Positions 20,899 through 32,914 of a DNA stretch of 33,162 bases are shown piece after piece. Origin of the DNA: a virus (Duplodnaviria; Caudoviricetes); the IMG/VR virus record IMGVR_UViG_3300032320_001880, positions 1 to 33,162 of that record; one strand, written 5' to 3'. Both the position numbers and the translations under genes were made by a program. Within the stretch, counting starts at the first letter, position 1, and every line of letters starts with the position of its first letter. The notes beneath the pieces were generated by a model. It was not told where the DNA came from. It saw only the letters and a list, made by a program, of their open reading frames with translations, and did no database searches.

Positions 20899-21324
20899 AT
20901 GAAAAACAGGAAAGCATTTTATGATTATCATATAGAAGAACAATACACAGCAGGTATTGTCCTTAAAGGTGATGAAGTTAAATCTATCAGAAATGGTAAA
21001 TGTAATTTTACAGATGCTTTCTGCATTATCACATCCAACTCAATAATCCTTAAAGGTTTATATGTGAATAAAAATAACCCATTCTCACCCGATGAAAAAA
21101 GGGATAAAACATTACTTTTAAATAAAAAAGAAATAAATAAAATTAAAAGTAAGTTTGTTGTGAAAGGTTATACTTTAGTCCCATTAGAACTTATATTTGT
21201 TAAGGGAATGGCTAAAGTGGTTATTGGTGTAGCCAAAGGTAAAAAGTCATTTGATAAAAAAGATAGTATCAAGTCAAAAGACATTGAAAAACAAACAAAA
21301 CGAGAATTAAAAAATTATAAGTGA
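20899..21324 (+). CDS. smpB: SsrA-binding protein SmpB
   Basis: NRKAFYDY, AGIVLKGDEVKSIR, R-x-K-x-LLLNKKEI, GYTLVPL, AKGKKSFDKK basic tail. Confidence 0.93.
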   Translation: MKNRKAFYDYHIEEQYTAGIVLKGDEVKSIRNGKCNFTDAFCIITSNSIILKGLYVNKNNPFSPDEKRDKTLLLNKKEINKIKSKFVVKGYTLVPLELIFVKGMAKVVIGVAKGKKSFDKKDSIKSKDIEKQTKRELKNYK

Positions 21325-21626
21325 TCGTTGAAAGAATTGACAAATTAGAAGAATATAAATATAATTACATTATGGAAGTTAAAAAAACAAACAAACAACT
21401 TTACAAGAAGTTTGATGGAACAGGACAGTTCCCAACGGATGCTCACGGAAAAATCATCAATAACAGAGCAACAGGTTATGATCCCTCTAAATATAGTTTT
21501 GAGGTGTTTAAGAAAACCGTTAAGGAGAAATTGGACTTGGCAACCGCTAAATCTAAATGGAAATCCTTTATGAGAATGTCTTATGGTAAAAATTGGAAAA
21601 GATATAACAACCCAACGACATTTTAA
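21321..21626 (+). CDS. Hypothetical basic protein
   Basis: GTGA-coupled ORF (alternative ATG at 21372). Confidence 0.6.
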   Translation: MIVERIDKLEEYKYNYIMEVKKTNKQLYKKFDGTGQFPTDAHGKIINNRATGYDPSKYSFEVFKKTVKEKLDLATAKSKWKSFMRMSYGKNWKRYNNPTTF

Positions 21627-21661
21627 TAAAACCCGCTATTTATATTAAAATTATTAAAATT

Positions 21662-21901
21662 ATGAAGTTAGAAGAATTAAAAAGTAAAATTAAAACCGAA
21701 GATTTTGACACGGTTTGTTTATTGATGTATGAAGCAATCGCTGAAAATAAAATCACAGCTGAGCAATTTACTGAATTGATGTATGAAGTCACGGATGAGT
21801 TTGAAGATCAACCTGAAGAGGACGATTTCAATGAATCTTTTGAAGAAGAAAACGATTTATTTGATAATTTTGATGATGAAGATTTAGATGAAAATTATTA
21901 A
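21662..21901 (+). CDS. Small protein with very acidic C-terminal tail
   Basis: DEFEDQPEEDDFNESFEEENDLFDNFDDEDLDENY; TATTTAT 21637-21643. Confidence 0.75.
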   Translation: MKLEELKSKIKTEDFDTVCLLMYEAIAENKITAEQFTELMYEVTDEFEDQPEEDDFNESFEEENDLFDNFDDEDLDENY

Positions 21902-21906
21902 TAATT

Positions 21907-21934
21907 AAACCCAATATTTCTATTGGGTTTTTTT
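21907..21934 (+). terminator. Intrinsic terminator
   Basis: AAACCCAATA-TTTC-TATTGGGTTT plus T-tract. Confidence 0.85.
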
Positions 21935-21957
21935 ATGCCTATACTTAAAAAAATATT

Positions 21958-22788
21958 ATGAAAGACACAAAAACATATCACGAGCTGGTTCAAAAACTCA
22001 GGGAGTTTTTCCTAGCAAAGGGCTTCTTAGAAGTGCCTACACAATCAAGATTATCAATTTTAGCGGCATGTGAAAACCCGCACTCAATCACACAATTTAA
22101 TTATTCAGGTGAGGTTTGGCCTCTACCACAAACAGGGCAAATGTGGTTAGAACACGAGTTATTACAAAACCCTGAATGGAATGGGGTATTCTGTATTTCA
22201 ACATCATACAGACAAGAAAAAGATCCAATCCCTGGTAGACACGAACTTATTTTCCCAATGTTTGAGTTTGAATCAAAAGGTGACATTAATGATATGAGAA
22301 AGATGGAAGAAGAACTTCTTATTCATTTAGGATTCGGAGCACCTGATAGAGTATTCTATAATTCTATGTGTGACAAATATGATGTTCAGATTTTAGAAAA
22401 CAGAGAAGAAACTAAAATGTGGAAAGATTTCGGTAATTGTATTTCATTGGAACATTTCCCTGAAAGAACAAATCCATTTTGGAATATGAAACACGATAGA
22501 AGTGATTTATATAATAAAATTGATGTGATTTTATTTGGACAAGAAACAATTGGTTCGGCTGAAAGAAGTTGTGATGTTGAACAAATGAGAAACACTTTCT
22601 ATACAATTGAAAATGGTGGTTACTCTAAAAAATTATTTGAATTGTTTGGTAAAGAAAGAGTTGAAAAAGAATTAGAACAATTTTTATCGTATGACTTCTT
22701 TAGCAGATTTGGTGGCGGGATTGGCCTCACCAGATTAAGCCGAGCTTACAAGATGTTAAAGGAACTTGAATTAGCTGAAAGTAAATAA
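21958..22788 (+). CDS. Class IIb aminoacyl-tRNA-synthetase-like protein, catalytic domain only (AsnRS/AspRS/LysRS-type)
   Basis: Motif 1 REFF..KGFLEVPT, LPQTGQMWLE, motif 2 SYRQE...RH..IFPMFEFE, ETIGSAER, motif 3 GGGIGLTRL; no N-terminal OB fold. Confidence 0.85.
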   Translation: MKDTKTYHELVQKLREFFLAKGFLEVPTQSRLSILAACENPHSITQFNYSGEVWPLPQTGQMWLEHELLQNPEWNGVFCISTSYRQEKDPIPGRHELIFPMFEFESKGDINDMRKMEEELLIHLGFGAPDRVFYNSMCDKYDVQILENREETKMWKDFGNCISLEHFPERTNPFWNMKHDRSDLYNKIDVILFGQETIGSAERSCDVEQMRNTFYTIENGGYSKKLFELFGKERVEKELEQFLSYDFFSRFGGGIGLTRLSRAYKMLKELELAESK

Positions 22789-22822
22789 AAAAAGGGTAGT
22801 TATTAAACTACCCTTTTTTTTT
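22787..22822. terminator. Bidirectional terminator between convergent genes
   Basis: A7-GGGTAGTT-ATTA-AACTACCC-T9. Confidence 0.9.
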
Positions 22823-22827
22823 AAATA

Positions 22828-23283
22828 TTAGTGAATGTTATCCCAATAATCTTTACCATAACCTACAAATATTTCATCACCAGCATCAATATCTTTGGTT
22901 GCTTGGATGTAAATGTTTTTACCATCCTGAGCTAAAGCTGAATTGTTTCTTTTACCTCTAATCTTTCTAAAACCTTCAGCGTCATTGGCGTATTTGGCTA
23001 AACACTTTGAATCATAAACATCTAAAGTGGTATTATCATCAATATAGATGAAATAAGCCGATCTTGCACCTCCAACATCTCTTTTTTCAAGTTCTTTACT
23101 ATCAATGTAATCACCAGTGAATTTACAGATATATTCACCTTTTTTAAAATCTTTCTTAGCGAAAAGTCCTTTACCTGAATTAGGTATTGTTGAAACATCA
23201 ACTTTAAGGTTTTTACTTTCTGAAGATTCTTGTAATCTTTCCTTTTTTACTTCATTTAGAATGTTTTTAATTAACTTTTCCAT
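22828..23283 (-). CDS. SET-domain protein (putative lysine methyltransferase)
   Basis: STIPNSGKGLFAKKDFKKGE, AKYANDA, ATKDIDAGDEIFVGYGKDYW. Confidence 0.9.
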   Translation of the reverse strand: MEKLIKNILNEVKKERLQESSESKNLKVDVSTIPNSGKGLFAKKDFKKGEYICKFTGDYIDSKELEKRDVGGARSAYFIYIDDNTTLDVYDSKCLAKYANDAEGFRKIRGKRNNSALAQDGKNIYIQATKDIDAGDEIFVGYGKDYWDNIH

Positions 23284-27279: not shown

Positions 27280-27299
27280 TTAAAAATTATATATTTATT

Positions 27300-27330
27300 T
27301 TTGTATAATTGAAAAACTTTATTATTTTTG
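27300..27330 (+). promoter_or_regulatory. Bacteroidota-type sigma70 promoter
   Basis: TTTG 27300-03, 19 nt, TATTTTTG 27323-30; ATG 4 nt later. Confidence 0.75.
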
Positions 27331-27334
27331 TAGT

Positions 27335-27625
27335 ATGACAATAGGAGATTTATGTGAATTCAAAACCAACTTCCCTGATGCGGATTTTTGGTTAGTTAAA
27401 AAAGGTAGTAGAAATGAAATTGGTAAGCCAGTTAAAACATTCTCACCTGAAAACATTGGTGTTAAAGTAATTAGAACCGATGTATTACTTCCCGAATATC
27501 TGTATTATGTCTTTATGAACATACAAAATCAAGGTGTTTTTGATATGTTAGCTGACGTAAATGATGGTGGAAAACGGATTATTTCCATAGATAAGTTGAA
27601 ACGACTACCTATTGGTAATCAATAA
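27335..27625 (+). CDS. Small protein resembling a minimal type I R-M specificity (HsdS TRD-like) domain
   Basis: IGDLCEF N-terminus, LLPEYLYYVF, ISIDKLKRLPI C-terminus. Confidence 0.5.
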   Translation: MTIGDLCEFKTNFPDADFWLVKKGSRNEIGKPVKTFSPENIGVKVIRTDVLLPEYLYYVFMNIQNQGVFDMLADVNDGGKRIISIDKLKRLPIGNQ

Positions 27626-27637
27626 CTTAAAAGAATT

Positions 27638-27673
27638 ATACCCGATTATTTGTTTAGTCGGGTATTTTTTTTT
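27638..27673 (+). terminator. Intrinsic terminator overlapping next promoter (TTTG 27649-52 / TATTTTTG 27673-80)
   Basis: ATACCCGA...TCGGGTAT plus T-tract. Confidence 0.8.
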
Positions 27674-27684
27674 ATTTTTGTTGG

Positions 27685-28272
27685 ATGATAGACAATTTTG
27701 AACAAATAAAGCAATACTTAACATTTGATAGTTCAGATGATTTCTATTACGTTCAGATAATTCAAAGGCGTAAGGAAAATCCTGAATTAAAAACAAATAA
27801 CTATATGGTTAAATCATATACTATAACTTCTGCTGACTATCTTGAAATGAAGAAGAAAGAGATTGTTACCCTATGTGAATTACATAACGCAAGGGCTTAT
27901 ATCAATCTTAATAAAAGGAGTTTTGAAAAGTGTGCTTACCATTCAATGAAGAAACTAACAGATGTGATATTAGCTAAGAGTTTTAAATCGGCTAAGAAGG
28001 TATTTGATAGTGTTGCTTCGGCACATTCGGCAGATAAAGAAAAGAAATGGTTGATTGATGTGGATGATATGGAGTTTCCAAGTCCATTGATGATGGCTCA
28101 TATTGAACATAATTGTAAGCCTTATGACCCTGATAAGATAATTGGTGTGATAAAAACTTTAAATGGATGTCATTTAATAACCAAACCATTTAACATTGTT
28201 CAATTTAGGGAGAAATACCCTGATGTGGAGGTGAAAAAAAACTCACCAACACTATTGTATTATTCGAAATAA
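27685..28272 (+). CDS. Hypothetical protein with AEP (primase-polymerase)-like catalytic motifs
   Basis: WLIDVD and TLNGCHLIT. Confidence 0.55.
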   Translation: MIDNFEQIKQYLTFDSSDDFYYVQIIQRRKENPELKTNNYMVKSYTITSADYLEMKKKEIVTLCELHNARAYINLNKRSFEKCAYHSMKKLTDVILAKSFKSAKKVFDSVASAHSADKEKKWLIDVDDMEFPSPLMMAHIEHNCKPYDPDKIIGVIKTLNGCHLITKPFNIVQFREKYPDVEVKKNSPTLLYYSK

Positions 28273-28289
28273 TTTAATACTATTATAAT

Positions 28290-28472
28290 ATGAAAAAGTT
28301 TGTTTTTACCAACAAAGGTAGTGATGAGGTTATTGGATTGACTGAAACACAAGAAGAATTGCAGGAAGCTATTGAGTTTTTTGCTGAAATAAAGAAATTA
28401 CCTATTGATGAGTTTCTTAAATTATATGATGTTAAACAAATTAAAACTAAAGAACGTGGAAGAATTAGATAA
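28290..28472 (+). CDS. Hypothetical protein
   Basis: 60-aa ORF with typical codon use. Confidence 0.65.
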   Translation: MKKFVFTNKGSDEVIGLTETQEELQEAIEFFAEIKKLPIDEFLKLYDVKQIKTKERGRIR

Positions 28473-28677
28473 AATAGGTGGTATTGATATATTAAAAATC
28501 TATGGACAGGTAAATAATGGTTTTAGTGAAATATACGAATTGAATGATGATTATGGGGCATATTTAGTTCCATTTGATATTAAAAATTATGGAGTGTATT
28601 TTGGTGATTTAGCACCAGAAAAACCTAAAAACTTAAAAAATGGTGTCCCTATGAATTGGGATAATGAAAACATTTAA
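28456..28677 (+). CDS. Hypothetical protein
   Basis: Probable GTG start at 28456 within ORF 28405-28677. Confidence 0.55.
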   Translation: MEELDKIGGIDILKIYGQVNNGFSEIYELNDDYGAYLVPFDIKNYGVYFGDLAPEKPKNLKNGVPMNWDNENI

Positions 28678-29045
28678 TCTACTAAAACCCAAACAAAGAA
28701 AGTGTGGAATGAAGCACTGAAAAGGATGTAATAGATAAGAAAATCTAATATTCCGATTATTGGTGAGTAGAATACTATTGCAAGTGATATACAAAGTATC
28801 ATAATACATTTAGCAAGATGCCACCAGTCAGTAAGGAATACAAATGCTGATGTTGAGAATGGGAACTTTTCACCCAAACCAGCGACACCATGTTTATATT
28901 TATTTGTCCAAGATTTCTTTGGGTTAAAGAATTGTGAATATTTGTTTAAATGTTTTTTAAAGAAAGATTTTTCCCATCTATAAGTGACTACATCCATAGA
29001 TGCGTTAAATATTCCTGCTAATATTATGAAAATAATTGAAATCAT
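28674..29045 (-). CDS. Membrane protein
   Basis: Three hydrophobic segments, FVFLTDWWHLAK; TATTTAT at 29050-29056. Confidence 0.75.
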   Translation of the reverse strand: MISIIFIILAGIFNASMDVVTYRWEKSFFKKHLNKYSQFFNPKKSWTNKYKHGVAGLGEKFPFSTSAFVFLTDWWHLAKCIMILCISLAIVFYSPIIGILDFLIYYILFSASFHTFFVWVLVD

Positions 29046-29056
29046 ATAAATAAATA

Positions 29057-29088
29057 TTTGGAAATATTAAAAATGTTATGTATCTTTG
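29057..29088 (+). promoter_or_regulatory. Bacteroidota-type sigma70 promoter
   Basis: TTTG 29057-60, 20 nt, TATCTTTG 29081-88. Confidence 0.8.
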
Positions 29089-29108
29089 TGGTATTAAAAT
29101 AAAAAAAT

Positions 29109-29351
29109 ATGAAAAATAAATTTTTAGAAAATGGAACGATGTTAGTGTTTACAACATTGATGAGTGTTTTATTCTTTTTGATAACTTATAAAGTTTTCAG
29201 ATTGGTAGATTGGGGTGCTCCGGTGGTTTTTGGTTGGAAATTGTTATTATTACCGATGTGGTGGGTTTTGATGTTAATGGTAACATTCATTTTCATATAT
29301 TTCTTACTTAAATCAATACTTTATTTAGTTAAATTAGTTAAAAACAAATAA
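29109..29351 (+). CDS. Small two-TM membrane protein
   Basis: Hydrophobic, Trp-rich loop. Confidence 0.75.
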   Translation: MKNKFLENGTMLVFTTLMSVLFFLITYKVFRLVDWGAPVVFGWKLLLLPMWWVLMLMVTFIFIYFLLKSILYLVKLVKNK

Positions 29352-29358
29352 AAAGATT

Positions 29359-29559
29359 ATGTCAGATAATAGTTCAAAGAAATCAGGATTAGGGATTGGG
29401 TCAATACTTTTCCTTATATTTTTAACTCTTAAATTGGGTGGTTGGGGAATTGTTGCTACTTGGAGTTGGTGGTGGATATTTTCCCCATTATGGATACCAA
29501 TTGCGATTATTTTATTAATCATTATTTTTGCTGGTATTATATCATTAATTTTTAAATAG
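29359..29559 (+). CDS. Small two-TM membrane protein
   Basis: FLTLKL...WSWWWIFSPLWIP pattern. Confidence 0.8.
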   Translation: MSDNSSKKSGLGIGSILFLIFLTLKLGGWGIVATWSWWWIFSPLWIPIAIILLIIIFAGIISLIFK

Positions 29560-29568
29560 AAAAAAATA

Positions 29569-29600
29569 TTTGGAAATATAAAATATCTTCCTTATCTTTG
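29569..29600 (+). promoter_or_regulatory. Bacteroidota-type sigma70 promoter
   Basis: TTTG 29569-72, 20 nt, TATCTTTG 29593-29600. Confidence 0.8.
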
Positions 29601-29620
29601 TTTCATAAATAATAAAAACT

Positions 29621-29992
29621 ATGGGATTTTTTAGCTGGAAAACACAAGACACAAAGAAAAGTATTGCTAATCAATACAGCACATTACCTACATTCCCTGT
29701 CTATATGACTGACAATCAAGGTAATATTTGGAAAGAAGAAAACTATGATGGTTATGGTGAGTTCGGTGGTAAGGATTACTACGAATTATTAGCCGAAATG
29801 AATGGTTTAGGTTCAGATAGAAGTGCTGGTATTGATTTGGTATTCAATGAAATCGGTGAAAAATATATCGCACCAAACTTATCTGAAAGTCCAAATTGGG
29901 AATGGATTGAAGAAGAACCTGAAAATTGTGAGTTTCAAGGATACTTTTATTATGATGATGAAGATGAAAGTTATGATGAGGATGAGGATTAA
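29621..29992 (+). CDS. Phage hypothetical protein with acidic tail
   Basis: MGFFSW, YDGYGEFGGKDYYELLAEMN, QGYFY. Confidence 0.8.
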   Translation: MGFFSWKTQDTKKSIANQYSTLPTFPVYMTDNQGNIWKEENYDGYGEFGGKDYYELLAEMNGLGSDRSAGIDLVFNEIGEKYIAPNLSESPNWEWIEEEPENCEFQGYFYYDDEDESYDEDED

Positions 29993-29994
29993 TT

Positions 29995-30024
29995 AAAAAA
30001 GGTTTGTTAATTCAAACCTTTTTT
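29995..30024 (+). terminator. Intrinsic terminator
   Basis: AAAAAAGGTTTG-TTAATT-CAAACCTTTTTT. Confidence 0.8.
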
Positions 30025-30033
30025 GTATATTTG
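30003..30033 (+). promoter_or_regulatory. Bacteroidota-type sigma70 promoter
   Basis: TTTG 30003-06, 19 nt, TATATTTG 30026-33. Confidence 0.8.
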
Positions 30034-30055
30034 TAATACTTAAAAAAAATAAAAA

Positions 30056-30748
30056 ATGTCAACACTTAAAATAGTTAAAAAGTCCGATGTGAATATCTTC
30101 TTCACATCGGACACGTGAACTCACTATGGACACAAGAACATATGTCGAGGTGTAAGTAATTGGAAAACTTATGATGGTGAAACACCTATCAATCAAACAC
30201 GTCCATTTGACACACTTGAGCAAATGAACGCAAGGATTGTTGCGGGTTTAAATGCTTCGGTTGGTGAGAATGATATTCTTATCCATTCAGGGGATTTTTC
30301 ATTCGGTGGATTTGAAAACATTGAGATATTCCGTAATAGAATTGTTTGTAAGAATATTCACTTGGTATTGGGTAATCACGATCACCACATAGAACGTAAT
30401 AAAGGTGGTGTGAAAAACTATTTCAAGTCAGTAAATGATATCTTAACCCTTCACGTTGAAATGGATAAGGAAAGTAAAAAAGACCCTAAGATTGTTCATA
30501 CATTCGAAATATTTCACTATCCAATTGCTTCTTGGAAGAATATGAATGAAGGTGTGATACTGCTGCATGGGCACGTTCATTTACCTCCACATAAAAGGCT
30601 TTCAGAGGGTAAGGCAATGGATATTGGTATTGATGGTAATAATATGGATCCAATCTCATTGGAAGAAGTTTTATCAATTATGGAAAATCAACCAATAAGA
30701 AAACTATCATTGCCATCCGATCACCACGAAGAAAGATTGAGAACCTAA
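30056..30748 (+). CDS. Calcineurin-like metallophosphoesterase interrupted by in-frame TGA (30116-30118); recoded gene or pseudogene
   Basis: ATG 30056 is in frame with ORF 30224; reads ...FFTSDT*THYGHKNI..., then GDFS, GNHDH, FHYP, HGHVH, DIGID motifs. Confidence 0.85.
30082..30112 (+). other. Perfect 12-bp intragenic hairpin abutting ACG-TGA-ACT
   Basis: GTCCGATGTGAA (30082-93), 7-nt loop, TTCACATCGGAC (30101-12). Confidence 0.9.
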
Positions 30749-30759
30749 TATTTATTTGT

Positions 30760-31185
30760 ATGGCATATTCAAGATGGAGTAATAGTATTTGGTATAGTTT
30801 TTGGGTTTCAACTGATTTAAAATATAAGTTGCCAACACAGAAATTAAAAGATGAACAATTGTTCGAGATTTGTGATTTCCCCTCATATTATGTGAGTTAT
30901 GGTTCAATCAAAACTGAAGGTATTGATGTAGTTCTTAAAGAAATAAAAGATTTTTATTCAAAGGATCATAACGGTTCAATATTTGATAAGTATGTTGATG
31001 GTAAATTGACATACAAAGAAACTACTTTTGACGCTAAAAATAATACCGATGAAGAAATTGAAGAATTGAAGGATTATTTAACTCAATTTATAAATGATGT
31101 TGATAATCATTTCAAATGGAATAACTTCTTTTATTATGAATGGTACCTTCCCTTTCGTCATAGTTTAAATAAAAAGTCCCAGTAA
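30760..31185 (+). CDS. Hypothetical protein
   Basis: MAYSRWSNSIWYSFW; TATTTAT 30749-30755. Confidence 0.75.
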   Translation: MAYSRWSNSIWYSFWVSTDLKYKLPTQKLKDEQLFEICDFPSYYVSYGSIKTEGIDVVLKEIKDFYSKDHNGSIFDKYVDGKLTYKETTFDAKNNTDEEIEELKDYLTQFINDVDNHFKWNNFFYYEWYLPFRHSLNKKSQ

Positions 31186-31199
31186 TGGGATTTTTTTTT
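31175..31199 (+). terminator. Intrinsic terminator
   Basis: AGTCCCA-GTAA-TGGGATT plus T-tract. Confidence 0.75.
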
Positions 31200-31213
31200 G
31201 CCTATTTATGAAT

Positions 31214-31834
31214 ATGAAAAAACTAATTACATTATTATTTATGCTACCCTTATTGGTATTTGGGCAAGCAAACAAAATTGATACGACAATATATGTATCA
31301 AACTACACCAGTTATTTTAGCAAATCACACAAAAACCCTATTATTTTAACTTATAAGTTGTATAAAGGTGGAGGTGATTGTTCAAGAGCAGGTTTCAGAT
31401 TTAAAAATGATTTACCTATTTCTTGTCAAACTGACGCTGAATATCTTAAATCAGGTTATGATAAAGGACATTTGGCTAATGCTGAGGACTTCGCTAATAA
31501 TTGTATGTATGATGAATTAACATTCAGATATTACAATTGTGTTCCACAAACAAAAGAATTGAATAGAGGTATTTGGAAACAACAAGAAACAACAATTAGA
31601 GCGATGTCACAAACAGATAGTTTATTAATATTCTGTTTCAATGATTTCTCAGGTTGTAATAAACCACAAAATAGCTTACACGTTCCTACATATTGTGTTA
31701 AAGGTGTTAAATCTTTATCAACTGGTAAATGGGTAAGTATTATGTTATATACAAACACAAGTAAACCTGAAGGTAAGCAAATTACACCTGAAGAGTTTAA
31801 AGCTAAGTTTGGAATTGATATAAACCAATATTAA
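31214..31834 (+). CDS. Secreted DNA/RNA non-specific endonuclease (NucA/EndoG family)
   Basis: Signal peptide MKKLITLLFMLPLLVFG|Q; SGYDKGHL, NCVPQ...LNRGIWK..E, VPTY; TATTTAT 31203-31209. Confidence 0.9.
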   Translation: MKKLITLLFMLPLLVFGQANKIDTTIYVSNYTSYFSKSHKNPIILTYKLYKGGGDCSRAGFRFKNDLPISCQTDAEYLKSGYDKGHLANAEDFANNCMYDELTFRYYNCVPQTKELNRGIWKQQETTIRAMSQTDSLLIFCFNDFSGCNKPQNSLHVPTYCVKGVKSLSTGKWVSIMLYTNTSKPEGKQITPEEFKAKFGIDINQY

Positions 31835-31854
31835 ATATTTAACTATTTATTGGT

Positions 31855-32292
31855 ATGAAAAACAATAAAGAACAAGAGCCAATAATTGCTCAACCAACAG
31901 AAAAAGTTATGGAACAAAAAGAAAACAAAATTAAGAAGTTTTTAGGTTTAGGAAAATCGGACTTCGTTAAAGTAGATGACAAAAACAGATTCTACTACAT
32001 GCTTCAAGGTATGCAAAATAACAGATGGAGAATTACTTTAATAGTATTATTCTTATTCTTCTTTATTATTGCAGGTATCAACTCAGCAGTATTTTTTGGT
32101 ATTTTAATCAATGAATCTTGGAAAGAAATGTTACTTATTTTATTAGGAGCATTTGTCGGTAATTTAAACAAAGTAGTTGATTACTGGTTCAATTCTGAAG
32201 ATAGAGATAAGATGTTAATTGCTAAGGTAGATGAGGAAGATGATTCAGTTGAAGCAATTATCGCTAAAAGAAATGCACCAACAAACATTTAA
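31855..32292 (+). CDS. Two-TM membrane protein, holin-like
   Basis: Two TM helices then VVDYWFNS and charged tail; TATTTAT 31844-31850. Confidence 0.5.
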   Translation: MKNNKEQEPIIAQPTEKVMEQKENKIKKFLGLGKSDFVKVDDKNRFYYMLQGMQNNRWRITLIVLFLFFFIIAGINSAVFFGILINESWKEMLLILLGAFVGNLNKVVDYWFNSEDRDKMLIAKVDEEDDSVEAIIAKRNAPTNI

Positions 32293-32294
32293 TT

Positions 32295-32876
32295 ATGGCT
32301 TACATATATAGACATATAAGATTAGACAAGAACGAACCTTTTTATATTGGTATTGGGGACAATTCACATGAAGGAACTTACCCTCGTGCTCATAGTAAAA
32401 AACATAGAAATAATCATTGGTTAAACATAGTTAAAATTACTGATTATAGGGTTGATATTATTATGGATGATATGACTTGGGAAGAAGCTTGTGTAAAAGA
32501 AAAAGAACTTATATGTTTATATGGTAGGCATGACAAAAATCTTGGTTGTTTATCAAATCAAACGGATGGTGGTGATGGTGGGACTGGTATTATTGTTAAA
32601 GAAAAAACAAAAGAAAAAATTAGAAGTTTTCAATTATCTTTAAACAAGAAAGGAAAACCAGGGCGTGTTTGGACTGAAGAATCTAAACAAAAACTATCTA
32701 AAACTATTACAGGACATAAACATACTGAAGAAGCGAAAGAAAAAATGAGGAAGCCGAGATTAAATACTGAAGGATATAAAAGACCTAAAAATAAAATTGA
32801 ATGTCCTCATTGTGGTATGATGGCTCAACCAACAAATGCTTATAGATGGCATTTTGACAATTGTAAGAAAAAATAA
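32295..32876 (+). CDS. GIY-YIG-like homing endonuclease with NUMOD3 repeats and Cys/His module
   Basis: YIYRH....FYIGIG, E..LI..YGR, L.NQTDGGDG, HTEEAKEKM, CPHC...WHFDNC. Confidence 0.8.
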   Translation: MAYIYRHIRLDKNEPFYIGIGDNSHEGTYPRAHSKKHRNNHWLNIVKITDYRVDIIMDDMTWEEACVKEKELICLYGRHDKNLGCLSNQTDGGDGGTGIIVKEKTKEKIRSFQLSLNKKGKPGRVWTEESKQKLSKTITGHKHTEEAKEKMRKPRLNTEGYKRPKNKIECPHCGMMAQPTNAYRWHFDNCKKK

Positions 32877-32914
32877 AGCACTTTAGGTGGATAAACAACC
32901 TTTAAAAATGTTTT

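Follow-up and report, generated by a model that had tools for sequence, protein, structure and literature searches.

Background

Few cases of natural programmed bypassing have been proven. The closest described system is T4 gene 60, whose 50-nt bypass belongs to the MobA homing-endonuclease element (10.1101/2022.08.31.505936; 10.1101/2024.12.09.627546). According to the first of these, the bypass protects against MobA and is kept after loss of the nuclease. A 5' stem-loop and a model in which it acts as a driver are described in 10.1101/2024.12.09.627546 and PMC11194080. Hopping over a stop codon has been made synthetically in E. coli, where it was low-level and unstimulated (Weiss et al. 1987, as cited in PMC5009743, a review that in 2016 knew of no natural example of in-frame stop hopping). 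Two further lines of work bear on our subject. Upstream hairpins promote +1 slippage (PMC3639245, PMC6321510), and in 70S ribosomes such a hairpin drives forward slippage at a stop codon, an effect seen only when RF2 is absent (PMC6321510). The Magnusiomyces mitochondrial byps and the gaps in the terminase of Streptomyces phage phiHau3 are mobile or phage-borne and rely on re-pairing at matched codons (10.1101/2022.08.31.505936; PMC10732093).

Here we describe a phage locus that, judging from its sequence and its relatives, is likely to encode a programmed 6-nt stop-hop at ACG-TGA-ACT, rebuilding the D-T-H of a predicted 228-aa phosphoesterase. Where T4 gene 60 has a gap of about 50 nt in Topo2L with a take-off stem-loop and a mini-SD, this locus has a 6-nt in-frame gap in a phosphoesterase, an unrelated host gene, and such a gap is too short to accommodate the take-off stem-loop and the mini-SD of T4. 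The T4 5' stem-loop lies 9 nt upstream and is not conserved between clades, whereas here a conserved 5' hairpin abuts the take-off codon. The long nascent-peptide signal of T4 has no counterpart in the present leaders of 8-26 codons, and the partner nucleases are of the LAGLIDADG, HNH or GIY-YIG kind, unlike the MobA element. The synthetic stop-hops have identical geometry, with nine bases giving one residue, but the present case is natural, conserved and provided with a candidate stimulator. The slippage constructs share with it a stable hairpin of about 12 bp beside the E site and, in the 70S test, a stop codon in the A site; they give +1 frameshifting, whereas a +6 hop is proposed here. The gaps of byps and phiHau3 are either 27-55 nt long and led by a sense codon that lacks its tRNA, or led by UUA, in contrast to the stop-led 6 nt of our locus. 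The proposed bypass would add a variant to translational bypassing, one that stands outside the T4 gene 60 element. In the literature searched, most of it outside subscription journals and supplements, we found no report of a natural 6-nt stop-hop or of a cassette in this gene.

The locus and its predicted enzyme

The window, by which we mean the whole stretch of 33,162 nt analysed (IMG/VR record IMGVR_UViG_3300032320_001880), has a GC content of 29% and is a piece of a large tailed phage with terminase, T4-like portal, PhoH and SmpB. The SmpB gene lies at 20899-23283 together with genes for a class II tRNA-synthetase-like protein and a SET-domain protein; a search for tRNA and tmRNA within the window found none. 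The features of the locus are collected in Table 1. Its promoter-like site, TTTG-N19-TATATTTG, has what we take to be the Bacteroidota-type promoter consensus.

Table 1. Features of the phosphoesterase locus (window coordinates)
Feature	Position	Strand	Basis or remark
Terminator-like hairpin closing the upstream gene; overlaps the promoter-like site; common to L001	29994..30025	+	computed
Promoter-like site; common to L001 up to 30038	30003..30033	+	sequence
Swapped-in 5' cassette, 80 nt: A-rich leader, start codon, 20-codon leader, hairpin, take-off codon, stop	30039..30118	+	comparison with L001, X4, L174, L175
Leader ORF, 20 codons, stop TGA	30056..30118	+	ORF list
Perfect 12-bp hairpin, 7-nt loop; 3' arm is the coding sequence of F-T-S-D	30082..30112	+	folding, comparison
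Predicted take-off codon ACG (Thr20)	30113..30115	+	role predicted
Stop codon TGA	30116..30118	+	ends 1 of the window's 35 long ATG ORFs
Predicted landing codon ACT, where the crossover to the intact allele on the right also lies	30119..30121	+	role predicted
Frame resumed at the His of motif I; phosphoesterase of the calcineurin-like type (phrog_547, 1XM7-like), motifs GD, GNHD, H, GH-x-H	30122..30748	+	profile, fold, motifs

The leader that starts at ATG 30056 ends in F-F-T-S-D-T, and after the TGA the frame goes on with T-H-Y-G-H and stays open to TAA 30746-48. The initial annotation had placed the start, the take-off codon, the stop, the landing codon and the frame open to 30748 at exactly these positions, and its arithmetic is sound: a hop would give a product of 20 + 208 = 228 aa, and its failure a peptide of 20 aa.

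The downstream protein belongs to phrog_547, has PDB 1XM7 as its best profile match (E 1e-30) and shares sequence family and fold with that Aquifex protein. The motifs of calcineurin-like metallophosphoesterases (D-x-H, GD, GNH, H, GH-x-H) are there, and so is their fold, which was predicted from an intact relative, L001 (pLDDT 93, closest structure 1XM7). D18 and H20 are invariant in 80 intact proteins, as is the D-x-H spacing. In the window protein motif I is complete only if the hop occurs; phosphoesterase activity is predicted from these motifs. No NCBIfam family matched. By this protein the nearest cultured phage is Flavobacterium phage immuto (57%). The database call of the window gene is 174 aa long, while the representative of its cluster is an intact protein of 227 aa; a stop-hop cassette would account for such truncated 174-aa entries. 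RNA-ligase-like and kinase-like neighbours in some loci allow the guess that the enzyme serves in RNA end repair.

A genuine site in a swapped 5' cassette

A metagenome contig from a separate assembly, L174, carries the identical cassette and is 98.4% identical to the window over 856 nt, so it represents another strain. L175 (76% identical in nucleotides) has a leader of the same type, the same ACG-TGA-ACT and the hairpin, in which one U-A pair is changed to G-C. Since both contigs have these codons, an assembly error can be rejected, and the 6-nt site that the initial annotation wanted confirmed is genuine. Among the assembled pieces listed for four read runs none bridges the cassette, and run X1, which may be the source run, has no contig over 30032-30301. 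Genome-wide recoding of TGA was also considered for the window and rejected (coding density 0.88 with table 11, 0.91 with TGA as sense).

The six bases were taken at the outset for a bare insert, removable without further change. The spacing they restore is as claimed; the bare insertion into a native gene is not borne out. L001 is 96.5% identical to the window over 27286-32895 (5.6 kb) and has an intact gene with a different 5' end of 53 nt, in whose place the window has the 80 nt of the cassette. Contig 11 of run X4 departs from the window at 30038 and rejoins it at 30119, with 446 other letters between. From the junctions of L001 and X4 it follows that the stop arrived as part of an exchanged 5' cassette, which meets the intact allele on its right side at the landing codon. 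The best 80 of 371 viral homologues are all intact, and the cassette is polymorphic among near-identical strains. Three loci (L205, L281, L306) are intact at motif I, yet have a strong hairpin and a carrier-like leader. They may be revertants from which the six bases have disappeared, or else precursors.

Recurrence and the matching of codons

The site recurs: 47 distinct codon-stop-codon cassettes occupy the D-x-H motif in distant phages, with 4 more shifted by one codon (scan records include duplicates; the 47 are 42 distinct 75-nt cassettes of the form x-stop-x and 5 representatives from the gap scan). A narrow pattern led to ACC-TAG-ACT in one distant phage, which shares the hairpin as well. 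With both flanking codons left free, all 17 matches in viral sequences fell in this gene and motif, which exceeds chance; 12 of them are Leu-stop-Leu and 5 Thr-stop-Thr (a profile recognized 13 at E<1e-3; the remaining 4 are decayed and were judged by eye). In metagenomes 43 of 55 matches were homologous (38 by profile, 5 by eye), and in contigs of prokaryote genomes, scanned with one pattern only, none of 6. The prediction that a stop flanked by matching codons is conserved at D-x-H thus came true even where the flanks were free to differ.

When the middle codon was left free, 18 of 28 matches were homologous and every one of the 18 had a stop there (15 of the form x-stop-x, 3 of the form D-x-H-stop-H); a sense codon occurred in none of these homologues. 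With the gap left free between 0 and 20 nt, in a scan that covered CNN take-off codons only, homologues made up 18 of the 22 matches with 3 nt after the stop, while the 10 homologous matches at other lengths (4, 15 or 20 nt) were intact genes out of register; the true cases all have the 6-nt hop layout. About 980 viral stretches hold a comparable intact pattern (116 of 121 sampled were homologues), so carriers make up about 2% of the family. All these counts are lower bounds because AGY-serine and other spellings of motif I fall mostly outside the scans. A cultured phage with the cassette does not occur among the matches listed.

The flanking codons in the 47 cassettes are Leu-stop-Leu in 31, Thr-stop-Thr in 8, Thr-stop-Ile in 5, and Thr-stop-Met, Gln-stop-Gln and Pro-stop-Leu in one each; the stop is TAA in 21, TAG in 15 and TGA in 11. 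Base 1 of the two codons is the same in all 47 and base 2 in 40, the other 7 showing a C-to-U change, while base 3 differs in 26. This pattern speaks for the logic of a tRNA and not for a DNA repeat; as related cassettes are not independent, such counts are to be read as patterns and not as probabilities. The 7 C-to-U cassettes (Thr-stop-Ile, Thr-stop-Met, Pro-stop-Leu) are the non-synonymous ones; they represent four lineages, have an identical base 3 and require a G-U pair at codon position 2, from which we infer a single tRNA, with G in the middle of its anticodon, that would be retained through the hop. Leu codons of carriers are all CUN, and intact genes with Leu at this place have UUR in 9 of 23. 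Two features of bypassing, a take-off and landing pair that one tRNA can read and a stop right after the take-off codon, were thus both found. The suggestion that the hop is tuned by RF2 or by availability of tRNA-Thr finds no support as a general feature, with TAA, TAG and TGA all in use and take-off codons for Leu, Thr, Gln, Pro and His.

Genetic codes appear to vary among the carriers. Judged from in-frame codons of neighbouring genes, L190 reads TGA as Trp and has TAG as its middle stop, while TAG is apparently sense in L189 and L087, whose middle stops are TGA and TAA respectively. In these three loci the upstream homing nucleases are open only if TAG or TGA is read as sense. In the four shifted cases (L188:1485-1530 on the minus strand, L189, L190 and L191, one of them found in a separate scan) the pattern is D-x-H-stop-H, with His at both take-off and landing. 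The hairpin is above threshold in one of the four, and in three the stem is predicted to run through the take-off His codon. An upstream GIY-YIG gene is present in two of the shifted loci and a LAGLIDADG gene in one.

A hairpin abutting the predicted take-off codon

The hairpin of the window stops on the base directly before the take-off codon and is far more stable than expected (z = -6.4; 0 of 200 shuffles), while L001 has none (z +1.7). Taking a pairing probability above 0.8 for the T-S-D codons as threshold, it is present in 41 of 42 carriers versus 9 of 108 intact genes, and in 39 of 41 the last base of the stem falls at position -1 or 0 relative to the take-off codon. With the 5' arm located from the invariant bases only, which was possible in 27 of 46 cassettes (the other 19 have no gapless arm), the free wobble positions were paired in 76 of 81 cells (70 Watson-Crick and 6 G-U), compared with 15 of 21 in chance arms of 7 intact genes. 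In 19 aligned cassettes, preselected for having the stem and with shorter arms trimmed by alignment gaps, 99.2% of cells pair, with exchanges among C-G, G-C and U-A (0 of 500 shuffles).

Hairpins span from 23 to 54 nt, so that each of the three frames is represented among the 5' arms, some of which extend into the 5' UTR; selection therefore acts on the RNA. An mRNA structure is thus conserved here as in programmed bypassing, its stimulatory role being putative. No Rfam family was found at the cassette in 10 sources. An antisense terminator, a role flagged in the window, was discarded: inspection by eye shows the A-run it requires mostly within the clade of the window. In the L324, L334 and L339 groups the 5' arm begins upstream of the ATG, and the leader may have just 9 codons. 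The arm there covers the start codon, right after a strong GGAGG, and may thus also affect initiation.

Selection, decay and history

Downstream of the stop the median dN/dS (pairwise, Nei-Gojobori) is 0.148 in 17 carrier pairs (0.05-0.31) versus 0.157 in 73 intact pairs; for the window itself it is 0.153 against L175 and 0.086 against L001. Purifying selection on the downstream frame, which the initial annotation had proposed to check in this way, is thus apparent at about 0.15. Part of the signal predates the cassette, because the cassette moves onto intact alleles. Clades made up of carriers only (6 and 4 rows) lessen this caveat without removing it, with dN/dS of 0.05-0.18 at dS up to about 1.9 and one near-identical pair at 0.31. 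By eye the downstream protein of the window agrees with that of an intact relative, P0011. Two carrier lineages, the L082 group and L086, have decayed downstream and are pseudogenes; a density test had flagged L082 as TGA-recoded, but its ORFs fit table 11 and the decay is real.

Carriers are scattered over the tree. In a quick tree of the downstream parts (36 carriers among 132 rows) 22 changes are counted, at least 11 of them forced by well-supported branches, and a single clade of carriers is rejected (p-AU 4.6e-5). Taken together, comparison indicates that the cassette is a real, conserved and mobile element of putative recoding.

Homing endonucleases next to the cassette

A LAGLIDADG, HNH or GIY-YIG domain (Pfam, E<=0.01) is encoded directly upstream in 10 of 34 carriers; among intact genes the figure is 2 of 71 (Fisher p 1.8e-4). 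In this comparison control flanks were shorter and five carriers had no upstream ORF; if seven near-duplicate upstream ORFs, which by eye do not resemble nucleases, are counted as well, the carrier figure becomes 10 of 41. By eye, L087, L134, L147 and L189 seem to be additional cases. In the window no homing endonuclease adjoins the cassette, and most carriers likewise are without a neighbouring nuclease. The hairpin and the nuclease link, both absent from the initial annotation, point more to a mobile, self-protecting cassette than to a regulatory sensor. By analogy, and from the upstream enrichment, we argue that the six bases may protect from cleavage by the nuclease.

Two other ORFs of the window should be mentioned. 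The segment 26171-27285, not in L001, holds an ORF of 281 aa right after the endolysin that looks HNH/NUMOD-like by eye, with a weak HTH as its only Pfam match. An ORF at 32295-32876, common to L001, is GIY-YIG-like by eye and has no Pfam match.

Alternative explanations

Could the cassette simply destroy the gene? A selfish nuclease cassette might inactivate a dispensable gene, with the matched codons as the scar of a duplication and the full protein absent. Such a tolerated knockout agrees with the intact state of about 98% of the sampled family, the polymorphism between near-identical strains, the decay in the L082 group and L086 and the nucleases enriched upstream. It is at odds with low dN/dS (0.05-0.18) in the carrier-only clades of 6 and 4 rows and with the constant position of the covarying hairpin at the take-off codon; moreover, close relatives swap TAA, TAG and TGA but never take up a sense codon, and base 3 of the codons drifts while bases 1-2 do not. 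We consider this explanation improbable. Readthrough of the stop, a commoner kind of recoding that would likewise keep the frame, would give D-T-X-T-H and ask the enzyme to tolerate two extra residues. That is very improbable given the D-x-H spacing, invariant in 80 intact proteins, and the 28 matches with a free middle codon, which include no homologue with sense there. TAA, moreover, is the commonest middle codon, the recoding loci (L190, L189, L087) use a codon that still stops, and codon matching would be left unexplained.

Two more explanations dispense with a hop. The enzyme might be made in two pieces, the ribosome stopping and then re-initiating at the next codon, with the leader peptide giving the first strands and the Asp in trans. 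The codon right after the stop is in fact ATG in one lineage, ATT in two and CTG in several, and split enzymes beside homing nucleases have precedent (10.1101/2022.08.31.505936). Most landing codons (ACT, ACC, ACA, CTC, CTA, CTT, CAG, CAT) are nevertheless no start codons, the next in-frame ATG of the window (30224) leaves out the His, and matching of take-off and landing would be needless, all of which leaves this arrangement with hardly any credit. We would be as surprised to find the six bases excised from the RNA by a nuclease and a ligase, both recognizing the hairpin. A hairpin conserved at a fixed distance and RNA-ligase-like neighbours in some loci (L140 by eye; L242) would fit, but excision needs neither codon-wise matching with a free third base nor C-to-U at position 2, and no Rfam family was seen at the cassette in the 10 sources. 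A stop-hop that rebuilds D-x-H, as the initial annotation proposed, has gained strong support from comparison, including the recurrence of matched cassettes and the purifying selection.

A possible mechanism and its implications

If the stop-hop reading is correct, the ribosome would pause when UGA enters the A site while ACG occupies the P site. The Thr-tRNA would then let go of ACG and pair again with ACU, six bases further along, and a single residue would result from nine bases. The hairpin would have been unwound during reading of the leader, its 3' arm being still inside the ribosome at the pause; re-zipping from the exiting mRNA, it might pull the ribosome forward until the tRNA meets ACU. 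The stop would give the pause and also compete with the hop through termination, which would release the 20-aa peptide. Peptidyl-tRNA drop-off could be high at the hop site.

As to origin, the gap may have arisen by protein-silent spoiling of the target site of a free-standing homing endonuclease, with which it would spread by gene conversion; in the window phage the nuclease would be gone and just the 80-nt cassette left. More generally, we are moderately inclined to think that a widespread and repeatedly evolved minimal module (an abutting 5' hairpin and codon-stop-codon) enables phage homing endonucleases, from three families unrelated to each other, to abolish the site they themselves target within a catalytic motif while the protein stays unchanged.

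If true, this would be the first natural in-frame stop-hop and, among known programmed bypasses, the smallest. It would work efficiently with no signal from the nascent peptide, and it would be concealed in gene catalogues as N-terminally truncated proteins. Homing nucleases would also have a way of becoming immune within a catalytic motif that calls for neither introns nor inteins. The signal, of about 40 nt, exists in about 50 natural variants, which show compensatory changes and together use three stops and five take-off tRNAs. They would allow one to ask whether the ribosome is driven forward when exiting mRNA pairs again, which is debated, and how much looseness re-pairing in the P site permits (G-U at position 2). 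One further locus deserves mention: at L216:701-802 the intact motif-I pattern matched twice, 75 nt apart, which is perhaps a duplicated 5' end.
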